Below are positions 19,316 through 21,388 of a DNA stretch of 24,923 nucleotides, one piece after another. The position numbers were made by a program, and so were the translations under genes. The DNA lies in the UHGV virus genome UHGV-0143632; one strand, written 5' to 3'. This stretch comes from a virus. Numbering within the stretch: the stretch's first letter is position 1; each line of letters opens with the position of its first letter. The notes under the pieces are model-generated. The model had not been told where the DNA came from, did not search any database, and was given only the letters and a program-made list of their open reading frames with translations.

Positions 19316-21388
19316 ATGAGCGCTGATAAACAGACTTTTGCACTACACTGCGAAGCAAAAAACGATAAAGTCAGAAAACGCCTTGGCATCAAAGGCGGTT
19401 TTTTCTGGACCGAGGCCAGAAAACTTTCTGTCGCAGTTTCCCGCTGCATTGCAGCCATGGACGATGCAGGCTACGACGAGGATGATTTCAAAAAACCCGT
19501 TCGCGTAAATTTCCCCGTCGTGAATGACCTTCCACCGGAAGGCGTGTTTGATACTGAATTCTGCAACCGCTATGAAAAAGGCGGTAACGATGGCATCACC
19601 ATGATGGCTATCCCCTTCGATGACAACATCAACGGTGAAGATGCCACAACTGCTGGCGATGACAACGATAACCTGGACGGAACTATTCCGGATGATGTGG
19701 AGAAAAGCGAATCCCCGGACAGCGACGATGACTGTTCTGAGTGTGAAATTCCCGTCGCCACTCTGAGCCTTACTCATCGCTTCCTTCACCTCTTCTTATT
19801 CAGCAAAGATGAAGATGGAAAATACCGGCATCACGCCACACCAGAACAACGCAATAACGTGATCCGTATGGAGATGGACACAGAGGACAGTTACCTTCAG
19901 AGCCTGCTTACTGCTGTGCGCGCCGCACATCATGAACTGGATAAACTGACGAACTATCACCTTAGTCGCCTGGCTGAATCTGTAGGGAAAGCATTCCCCC
20001 ACTCTGCAAATCATCGCATCAGCCCGGCTGAATTCGACAAGTTCATTTCCACCTGGATGAAAACTGACTACCTTGATCAGGGCCTGCTGACAAAAGAATG
20101 GCAGAACGGAAATTATGTTTCAGGCATTACCCGTACGCCTTCCGGTGCTAACGCTGGCGGCGGAAATCTTACCGATCGTGGTGAAGGATTCAAACATGAT
20201 AAGACATCACTCGCACGAGATGTAGCCACCGGCGTTCTGGCCCGTTCAATGGATGTGGATATTTATAACCTGCACCCAGCACACGCAAAACGCGTTGAAG
20301 AAATCGTGTCAGAGAATAAGCCGCCCTTTTCTGTTTTTCGCGACAAATTTATCGCCATGCCCGGTGGGCTGGATTATTCCCGCGCCATTGTGGTGGCTTC
20401 CGTGAAAGAAGCACCAATCGGCATTGAGGCCATCCCGGCACGCGTGACTGAATATCTCAACAAAGTGTTGACCGAAACCGATCACGCTAACCCGGATCCG
20501 GAAATCGTGGAAATTGCCTGCGGTCGCTCATCAGCACCGATGCCGCAGCGCGGAACAGCAGAAGGAAAACATGGCGATGAAGAAAAGCAACAAGCATCGG
20601 ACACAATGGCTAATGAACAGGCAGCGCCTGAATCAGTGGAAGAAATTCCAGTTAAACATAATGAGGACACGCAATCACTGGAAAATGTCTCATCTGTAGA
20701 AACGAAATACCAGGAACTGAGGGAGGAACTCAATAAAGCCAGGGAAAACATCCCCCCAAAAAATCCAGTCGATGCCGACAAATTACTGGCTGCCTCGCGT
20801 GGAGAATTCGTTGAAGGCATCAGTAACCCTGCTGATCCGAAGTGGGTGAAGGGGATCCAGACTCGCGACACTGAGGACCAGAATCAGTCCAAAGTGGAAC
20901 AAATTGCCCCAGAAGCGGGACAAAACAGCCCGGATACGCAACAAAACGGGTCAGAAGAGCAACAGCCAGGGCCAGTAGCGCAACCGGAGCTGGAAAAAAA
21001 CTGCCGCGTCTGTGGTCAGACTGGCGGGGGTAACTGCCCTGACTGTAGTGCGGTAATGGGCGATAGCACTTACACAGAAACTTTTGGAGAAAATGACGCC
21101 GCTGATGGAGAAGACTCAGCACAAACTGAGGAGAAGATCATTCAGGAAAACTCTGTTGATGCCGCTCAGGAGGGCGAAACCGTTGTTCAGAACGAGCCAG
21201 GCAGTGATACGTCCGGCGATGACGCCAATTCTGAGCCAGTAACTCTCGACTGGAAAAGACAGCTCGTGATTGCCGCCGTCTATGGTTTGTGCGCCAACCC
21301 CGCATGTATAGCCACAGCGCCAGCAATCCCTGATATCGCCATCATGATTGCCAACAGGCTTGAAAATTTCGGAGGTGATAAATCATGA
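19316..21388 (+). CDS. Large acidic protein of unknown function (690 aa), translationally coupled to gam
   Basis: Long uninterrupted ORF with SD GAGG upstream; stop overlaps the gam start (ATGA). Strongly acidic D/E-rich low-complexity segments; CxxC-x7-CxxC cluster ([16 protein letters not shown]) near the C-terminus; hydrophobic C-terminal tail. Confidence 0.7.

Follow-up and report, generated by a model that had tools for sequence, protein, structure and literature searches.

A nuclease-less relative of the RecE N-terminal region directly precedes gam-bet-exo in a Stx-phage-like lambdoid prophage

RESULTS

The locus and its 690-codon gene

We analyzed a virus genome of 24,923 nucleotides (nt), UHGV-0143632 (the whole stretch is called the window here), and concentrated on its open reading frame (ORF) at 19316..21388, which starts with ATG and codes for 690 amino acids (aa). 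The window is a Stx-phage-like lambdoid prophage, and the ORF lies in its early-left operon, between the N/kil region and gam-bet-exo-xis-int. We are nearly certain that this gene encodes a stand-alone counterpart of the N-terminal, non-catalytic part of RecE (exonuclease VIII), without the nuclease. An earlier sequence-only reading of this DNA had called the protein uncharacterised, but it does carry an annotation. A prophage of Escherichia coli SCU-104 (NZ_CP053284.1), adjoining a ynfG/dmsB-type gene, matches the window at 100% identity, and the 690-aa gene is already deposited there as WP_021571294.1, with the RefSeq name 'RecE family exodeoxyribonuclease'.

The descriptive features named in that reading were all confirmed. 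The ORF has the position proposed for it, and its stop codon (TGA, 21386-21388) overlaps the gam start codon (ATG, 21385-21387) as ATGA; the ORF is translationally coupled to gam-bet-exo. Its product is strongly acidic and rich in D/E stretches, with an isoelectric point of 4.58 and 124 D+E vs. 68 K+R residues, a net charge of -56. CxxC motifs occur at residues 140-143, 563-566, and 574-577, the last two forming the paired cluster CRVC-x7-CPDC (563-577) that had been noted near the C-terminus. The C-terminus itself is hydrophobic, with a top 19-residue Kyte-Doolittle window of 1.75. An ORF of 690 codons at ~50% GC far exceeds chance, and this is a real gene conserved under purifying selection. 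Scans for tRNAs and Rfam families gave no match inside it. A terminator-like hairpin (CGCCTTGGCATCAAAGGCG followed by GTTTTTT) lies at 19379-19397, ~60 nt past the start of the ORF, and can be read as a terminator in either direction; matches of this kind numbered 14 in the region vs. 4.0 expected. The hairpin could be an intrinsic early-left terminator that depends on N-type antitermination, or it could have arisen by chance.

Homology to RecE and the missing nuclease

Kinship with the non-catalytic N-terminal region of RecE, which the sequence-only reading had offered as its alternative, is what profile and pairwise searches returned. Pfam PF06630 (Exonuc_VIII) matches residues 55-197 above its gathering score (E = 1.3e-12), and PHROG 607 aligns residues 1-688 with positions 1-618 of 883 (E = 6e-259). 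NCBIfam NF007259 (exodeoxyribonuclease VIII) aligns residues 1-637 with profile positions 1-598 of 877 at 740.1 bits, short of the equivalog cut-off of 1269, since no match extends into the last third of the profile. BLASTP against K-12 RecE gave 54% identity (query 58-601, RecE 50-555), with ~85-90% identity in the core (query ~240-410), and the similarity stops near residue 600. The confident match covers ~90% of the protein, in a region to which the literature assigns no function. K-12 RecE also keeps the CxxC-x7-CxxC knuckle, as CNACGQTGGDNCPDC, and the knuckle presumably binds zinc. This cluster is present, as had been claimed, but it is not special to the 690-aa protein and is an inherited RecE feature.

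The catalytic part of RecE is missing. Pfam detects the PD-(D/E)XK nuclease domain PF12684 in K-12 RecE and in P0119 (WP_096317506.1, from strain PEC240), and this domain is absent from the 690-aa protein. A PDB sequence search with the protein found no match to 3H4R, the RecE nuclease, and its AlphaFold2 model holds no further folded domain past residue ~500 besides two tail helices. A RecT partner is likewise absent directly downstream, where gam, bet, and a lambda-type exo stand instead. The name 'exodeoxyribonuclease VIII' is therefore misleading for these proteins, which have no recognisable nuclease domain. The features of the ORF and its neighbors are collected in Table 1.

Table 1. Features of the ORF at 19316..21388 and of the adjoining genes (positions in the window)
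Feature	Position	Strand	Evidence
Rac-type kil (18517..18738) and 128-aa hypothetical gene (18822..19208)	18517..19208	+	DNA comparison, annotation
GAGG Shine-Dalgarno-like element, 10 nt 5' of the ORF ATG	19302..19305	+	sequence read directly
690-aa ORF, RecE N-terminal-region homologue without nuclease domain (RecE-N + tail)	19316..21388	+	profile and BLASTP matches
N-terminal alpha/beta domain, aa 1-100; pLDDT > 90, dN/dS 0.07-0.19	19316..19615	+	model, dN/dS
Acidic linker, aa 101-145; mostly predicted disordered, net charge -0.38 per residue	19616..19750	+	composition, model
Helical core subdomain A, aa 146-263; N-terminal part under PF06630	19751..20104	+	Pfam, model
Gly-rich loop and helical subdomain B, aa 264-410; the family's most widely kept module	20105..20545	+	BLASTP, phmmer, model
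Acidic disordered linker, aa 411-456; dN/dS 0.66-0.86	20546..20683	+	model, dN/dS
Helix and conserved 'PKW' motif, aa 457-520	20684..20875	+	profile matches, model
Disordered linker, aa 521-560; near-identity to the PEC240 allele stops here, ~nt 1586	20876..20995	+	model, alignment
CxxC-x7-CxxC knuckle, aa 561-590; conserved in K-12 RecE	20996..21085	+	alignment
Acidic disordered linker, aa 591-643; dN/dS 0.56-0.65	21086..21244	+	model, dN/dS
C-terminal tail, aa 644-690; helix-NP-loop-helix, replaces nuclease domain, dN/dS 0.07-0.09	21245..21385	+	alignment, model, dN/dS
gam Shine-Dalgarno GGAGG (21371-21375) within the last codons of the ORF, and ATGA overlap (21385-21388)	21371..21388	+	sequence read
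gam, 98 aa; lambda-like DNA homology starts at its ATG	21385..21681	+	ORF list, annotation, DNA comparison
bet (TIGR01913)	21687..22472	+	profile match
exo, lambda-type	22469..23149	+	profile match
int	23710..24873		annotation

Domain anatomy and selection along the gene

To describe the architecture of the protein, we used an AlphaFold2 model that drew on 103 diverse members of the family. The predicted local distance difference test score (pLDDT) exceeds 90 for residues 1-100, a small alpha/beta domain, and for residues ~140-415, which are helical. Further helices are predicted at 459-477 and 487-494, a terminal helix-loop-helix (646-660 and 671-683) is modelled at pLDDT 50-70, and residues 104-138, 418-456, 514-559, and 578-643 are predicted to be disordered (pLDDT < 50). 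In a separate model of residues 140-415, two helical subdomains are joined by a highly conserved but flexible Gly-rich loop. The segment with the PKW motif is common to several phage 'exonuclease' PHROGs and to O157 DnaQ-type exonucleases. The linker at aa 101-145 contains the DDNDNLDG...DDDCSECE stretch that the sequence-only reading had quoted as an example of low complexity. Across the family the linkers are acidic (median net charge -0.09 to -0.21 per residue) and variable in length and sequence, and the folded modules are near neutral.

The confidently modelled domains were searched against BFVD with Foldseek, which returned no structural homologue. In PDB, neither the protein itself nor profiles built for the whole family, its core, or the tail retrieved anything informative, and no structural homologue emerged there either. 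We also found no similarity in sequence or fold to lambda Gam, GamL, Abc2, or Mu Gam, nor to DNA-mimic anti-restriction proteins of the Ocr/ArdA type. On the strength of the models, then, these domains appear to form an orphan fold with no homologue in PDB or BFVD.

To see how selection acts along the gene, we estimated the ratio of nonsynonymous to synonymous substitution rates (dN/dS) for the ORF, using the corresponding alleles of Shigella phage 75/02 Stx and E. coli M8 as comparators. The folded modules gave dN/dS of 0.07-0.20, and the long acidic linkers (aa 411-456; 521-560 in M8; 591-643) gave 0.56-0.86. The C-terminal tail had the lowest values of all segments, 0.07-0.09, and the ORF as a whole stood at 0.23 with dS up to 0.6. 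The acidic stretches are relaxed linkers, and the selection profile rules them out as the functional part of the protein.

Interchangeable C-termini and the conserved tail

A HMMER search of 1.84 billion cluster representatives returned just 204 relatives, so the family is narrow. We classed the C-termini of 150 of these 204 relatives (50%-identity representatives) by local phmmer and counted those of at least 400 aa. A RecE-type PD-(D/E)XK C-terminus was found in 23 representatives, a DnaQ-like 3'-5' exonuclease (PF16473) in 14, and a ~45-residue tail like that of the ORF in 22. The remaining 28 had no C-terminal domain recognised by phmmer, among them P0124, in which RecT is fused directly. 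Going by these comparisons, the C-termini of the family are interchangeable between a RecE nuclease, a DnaQ-like exonuclease, and a conserved tail. Two E. coli O157 prophages (L007:4001-6445 and L008:2589-5060) carry ~815-823-aa 'exonuclease' genes made of RecE-N modules and an Rv2179c-like/DnaQ-like domain (PF16473); both genes adjoin xis/int, and no annealase gene is nearby.

The tail follows the consensus L-T-Y-x-QQLTIAALQGLCANPA-x5-DDIPxMAxxLA. In an alignment of the 22 sequences, which are otherwise 20-40% identical, six positions (A, A, G, C, N, and P) hold the same residue throughout, and the 690-aa protein, with the motif (QQLTIAALQGLCANPA...IPxMA) in its last ~50 residues, keeps 6/6 of them. 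This conservation and the low dN/dS mark the tail as a genuine domain. Subdomain B was detected in 21/22 tail-class representatives and is present in the 690-aa protein, and the other modules were found less often (N-domain 7/22, subdomain A 5/22, PKW motif 8/22, knuckle 2/22), although module detection here was by single-sequence phmmer, whose sensitivity is limited. The essential unit thus looks like subdomain B plus the tail. Searches for a free-standing tail, by tblastn of phage genomes and by a profile search of a 5.8-billion-protein collection, found only the ends of RecE-family genes or short fragments. A derivation of the tail from the lambda kil/long-gam-ORF region was considered and is ruled out, as lambda DNA homology begins at the gam ATG, and a transmembrane tail was rejected on hydropathy across homologues.

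Distribution and neighbors

Of 5426 complete E. coli genomes, 83 carry the gene at ≥80% coverage. The tail was detected in 106 complete E. coli genomes and lies directly before gam in every E. coli case, across several prophage backgrounds. Close protein clusters of the ORF measure 680-700 aa and are found on hundreds of contigs, with most copies intact. As to whether the ORF is split in related prophages, a frameshift or truncation was indeed found in a minority of E. coli prophages (L003, L005), but the gene is intact in most. In the E. coli FDAARGOS_944 prophage (L003:5140-6539), where RecE-N is a pseudogene, the tail remnant still adjoins gam, and gam is followed by an AAA_24 (Sak4-like) ATPase gene rather than bet/exo. 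The gene is also intact in the isolated phages 75/02 Stx, POCJ13 (Sepvirinae), PhiR5_2 (host K-12), and phiSTEC1589-Stx1c, and in these four the order kil, 128-aa gene, RecE-N, gam, bet, exo, int is complete.

The flanks of the ORF form a mosaic: on the left the DNA is Rac-like rather than lambda-like, and lambda-like DNA begins at the gam ATG. Gam, at 98 aa, has the length of lambda's short Gam form, and a DUF4222 gene and an excisionase remnant lie between exo and int. The 128-aa hypothetical protein (18822-19208, + strand) has a C-terminal CDCPECQ motif and is encoded between kil and the RecE-N gene, the position of ydaE/racC in Rac. Its gene keeps the same place in 75/02 Stx and PhiR5_2 and has no Pfam or PADLOC match.

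Outside E. coli, prophages of Lelliottia, Buttiauxella, Citrobacter, and Cedecea (L009-L016) were picked up as carriers of tail-class genes by a genome-wide scan for the tail motif. All of the loci retrieved from genomes were enterobacterial, apart from three weak cyanobacterial pattern matches (L017-L019) that are short and probably due to chance. In the Lelliottia, Buttiauxella, Citrobacter, and Cedecea loci, no homologues of gam, bet, exo, or recT were detected between the repressor-like gene and int, and the order is tail-class gene, small gene, xis, int. These loci indicate that the nuclease-less protein is independent of a linked phage recombinase. Coupling between the two genes is nearly always tight. 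The tail-class gene and the small gene overlap by 4 nt in four loci and by 1 nt and 11 nt in two, and are separated by a 3-nt gap in one. For L010 the product of the small gene is an Rrf2-like winged helix-turn-helix protein, and L013 has one of 114 aa that looks similar. In L009 it is a DprA_WH-like protein of 74 aa, and L012, L014, and L015 each have a Cys-rich protein of 75 aa in this place. Coupling to the small downstream gene may matter more than the identity of the partner.

Other features of the window

Elsewhere in the window, two copies of the STnc100 small RNA (Rfam RF02076; 130 and 139 bits) lie on the - strand at 5095-5304 and 5580-5773. They sit in an otherwise unannotated ~1.4-kb gap that runs from a 208-aa gene (6314..6940) to a SASA/NanS-type esterase gene and contains no stx or tRNA genes. 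Going by Stx-phage gene order, the 208-aa gene would be the late antiterminator Q and the gap the stx position. A P1/P7-type C4 antisense RNA (RF01695), its a1/b1 target (RF03163), and an isrK match (RF01394) are clustered at 9414-9612 on the - strand, just upstream of an ORF6N-domain gene (8686..9360). This cluster looks like an antirepressor-type immunity module within the nin region. A RelE/ParE-family toxin and helix-turn-helix antitoxin pair is annotated at 10334-10973 in the nin/replication region (L002 9649..10288, offset 685).

DISCUSSION

What is already known and what the gene adds

This gene is common and already named in databases, and nuclease-less RecE relatives are already in print. 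A 2025 Genome Res survey of lambdoid Rec modules describes, in the passages matched by our term searches, 'RecE-2' proteins that lack a nuclease domain by structure prediction and whose 'roles [are] not known', and also reports DnaQ-like nucleases in Rec modules (PMC12315714). Neither the tail motif nor a three-way modularity of the C-terminus is described in those matched passages. Relative to the searchable literature, the conserved tail domain, the three-way C-terminal modularity, the selection profile, and the occurrence without a recombinase are new.

These results bear on an old question about RecE itself. The N-terminus of RecE is dispensable for nuclease activity and has no assigned function (PMC11611040, PMC11610958, bioRxiv 10.1101/2022.01.13.476211). 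Still, passages in two of these papers, both citing Fu 2012, state that full-length RecE boosts linear-linear recombination (PMC11611040, PMC11610958). The ~600-residue N-terminus, which recent reviews credit with making full-length RecE the preferred enzyme for linear-linear recombination and direct cloning, exists in nature as a protein in its own right that ends in a conserved domain of its own. Purifying selection acts on this protein, which adjoins lambda Red in viable Stx phages and elsewhere occurs without a recombinase. Because it is a separate, selected polypeptide that lies next to Red or without any recombinase, the RecE N-region very likely has an independent activity. The stand-alone gene makes the question of what the RecE N-terminus does experimentally tractable by simple genetics.

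A proposed role as an adaptor at DNA ends

Taken as a whole, the identity of the gene combined with an adaptor mechanism is our best explanation, at a probability of roughly 50%; the mechanism considered separately is tentative and falls somewhat short of even odds. Under this proposal, the RecE N-region would be an autonomous non-catalytic adaptor in phage DNA-end metabolism that works with any available DNA-end-processing activity, fused or separate. The fused partners would be the RecE nuclease or DnaQ-like exonuclease of the relatives, and the separate ones lambda Exo/Bet here and host enzymes elsewhere. Subdomain B and the tail would bind the partner or drive oligomerisation, the acidic linkers would serve as spacers, and linear phage DNA ends would be helped or protected in recombination-dependent replication. 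The reported boost that the N-region gives to full-length RecE in linear-linear recombination would be a parallel. A more specific version, which we consider doubtful, has the orphan-fold N-region binding a host DNA-end enzyme or DNA ends through subdomain B and the hairpin, with nuclease-less forms bridging or protecting ends in trans, together with lambda Red or with host enzymes alone. If true, such trans-acting bridging or protection would explain both the RecE N-terminus and its linear-linear boost, and it would offer a portable add-on for Red-based direct cloning.

Several points weigh against an adaptor. Tail-class genes occur in prophages without any recombinase, so the function may be unrelated to recombination, and the co-occurrence with Gam argues against a purely Gam-like role. 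Since the tail is modelled at a pLDDT of just 50-70, its part in partner binding or oligomerisation is a guess. The gene is also dispensable for survival of the lysogen, given the pseudogenes in L003 and L005. Finally, Fu et al. 2012 reportedly may have found the RecE N-region inactive in trans, which would weaken the adaptor model.

Alternative explanations

We considered the alternatives in descending order of likelihood. A plausible one, although we give it a low probability, would make the N-region an anti-nuclease or anti-defence factor that inhibits or diverts a host nuclease or defence, for example by Gam-like modulation of RecBCD or by inhibiting another nuclease, independent of recombination. 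This would suit the tail-class genes that stand alone in early-left operons of prophages without a Rec module, as well as an early-operon place and an orphan fold, both typical of host-takeover genes. A Gam-like function within recE was also proposed long ago, and Gam has no effect on RecET linear assembly (bioRxiv 10.1101/2022.01.13.476211, PMC13048471). However, the E. coli gene is coupled to a bona fide Gam, which would make a plain RecBCD inhibitor redundant, and fold searches showed no similarity to Gam or to any known inhibitor or mimic. Constraint is weakest in the acidic segments of the protein, and a targeting module would better account for an N-region that relatives carry fused to two different exonucleases. 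PADLOC gave no match for the ORF or its two upstream neighbors, but it models defence systems rather than anti-defence proteins. The headline of the sequence-only reading, an acidic DNA mimic with an anti-defence role, is poorly supported and has only a slim chance; here the D/E-rich stretches would imitate DNA and titrate DNA-binding host enzymes. The net charge of -56 speaks for it, as does linker acidity that is kept in composition family-wide. Established mimics such as Ocr and ArdA, by contrast, show their acidic residues on rigid folds. The acidic segments here are predicted to be disordered, vary in length, and have the highest dN/dS, whereas the constrained folded modules carry almost no net charge. 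These acidic linkers recur throughout the family, including in catalytically active, nuclease-bearing RecE members, and fold searches gave no match to a known mimic or inhibitor.

The gene could instead be an inert remnant of a recombination between a Rac-type recET module and a lambda-type gam-bet-exo module that left a 5' recE fragment with a fortuitous C-terminus. Such an origin would agree with the clear mosaic junctions (a Rac-like left flank and lambda homology from the gam ATG), with the frameshifted or truncated relatives, and with P0124, whose RecE-N-RecT fusion resembles a deletion product. Yet the tail is conserved across genera, and the representatives of 400 aa or more that keep it, at least 22 in number, otherwise show only ~20-40% identity. 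Its dN/dS and that of the whole gene point the same way even at the divergence reached here, and viable phages and most E. coli carriers have the gene intact. We therefore regard an inert remnant as largely refuted and very improbable. A tail-anchored inner-membrane protein is also unlikely, with just as remote a chance. The best hydropathy window, which is 1.62-1.69 in close relatives of the 690-aa protein, would favor an anchor, but the same segment scores 0.5-1.3 in most homologues, includes Q, N-P, and D-D residues that are conserved, and forms a helix-loop-helix hairpin in the model.

Comparison with known systems

Four known systems come closest to the 690-aa protein. The 866-aa RecE of the K-12 Rac prophage shares with the 690-aa protein the Gly-rich loop, the PKW motif, the CxxC-x7-CxxC knuckle, and the acidic linkers, and a Rac-type kil lies in the upstream neighborhood of both. 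By contrast, K-12 RecE has a PD-(D/E)XK domain at 606-866 (PDB 3H4R, its only structure-solved part) where the 690-aa protein ends in a 45-aa tail, and recE precedes recT in K-12 whereas the ORF precedes gam-bet-exo. The first ~57 residues and residues 100-240 are also divergent between the two. The O157 proteins that combine RecE-N with a DnaQ-like domain (PF16473; for example WP_088592045.1 and WP_000034457.1) carry a 3'-5' exonuclease at the C-terminus instead of the tail. The 'RecE-2' proteins of the Genome Res survey, as far as its matched passages describe them, resemble the ORF product in being RecE relatives without a nuclease domain, encoded in the early-left operon of lambdoid phages (PMC12315714); in comparison with them, the core of the 690-aa protein is closely related to that of Rac RecE.

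The most direct comparison is with P0119, the 1049-aa PEC240 protein. Its N-region matches residues 1-611 at 87% protein identity, and DNA identity to the ORF is 96.7% over nt 1-1586. Unlike the 690-aa ORF, P0119 runs on into a PD-(D/E)XK domain and is followed by RecT. Because an N-region this similar is joined to a nuclease and RecT in PEC240, the C-terminal effector and the downstream recombinase genes have been swapped as a cassette, with a breakpoint in the linker past the PKW motif. This indicates that one N-region serves both arrangements.

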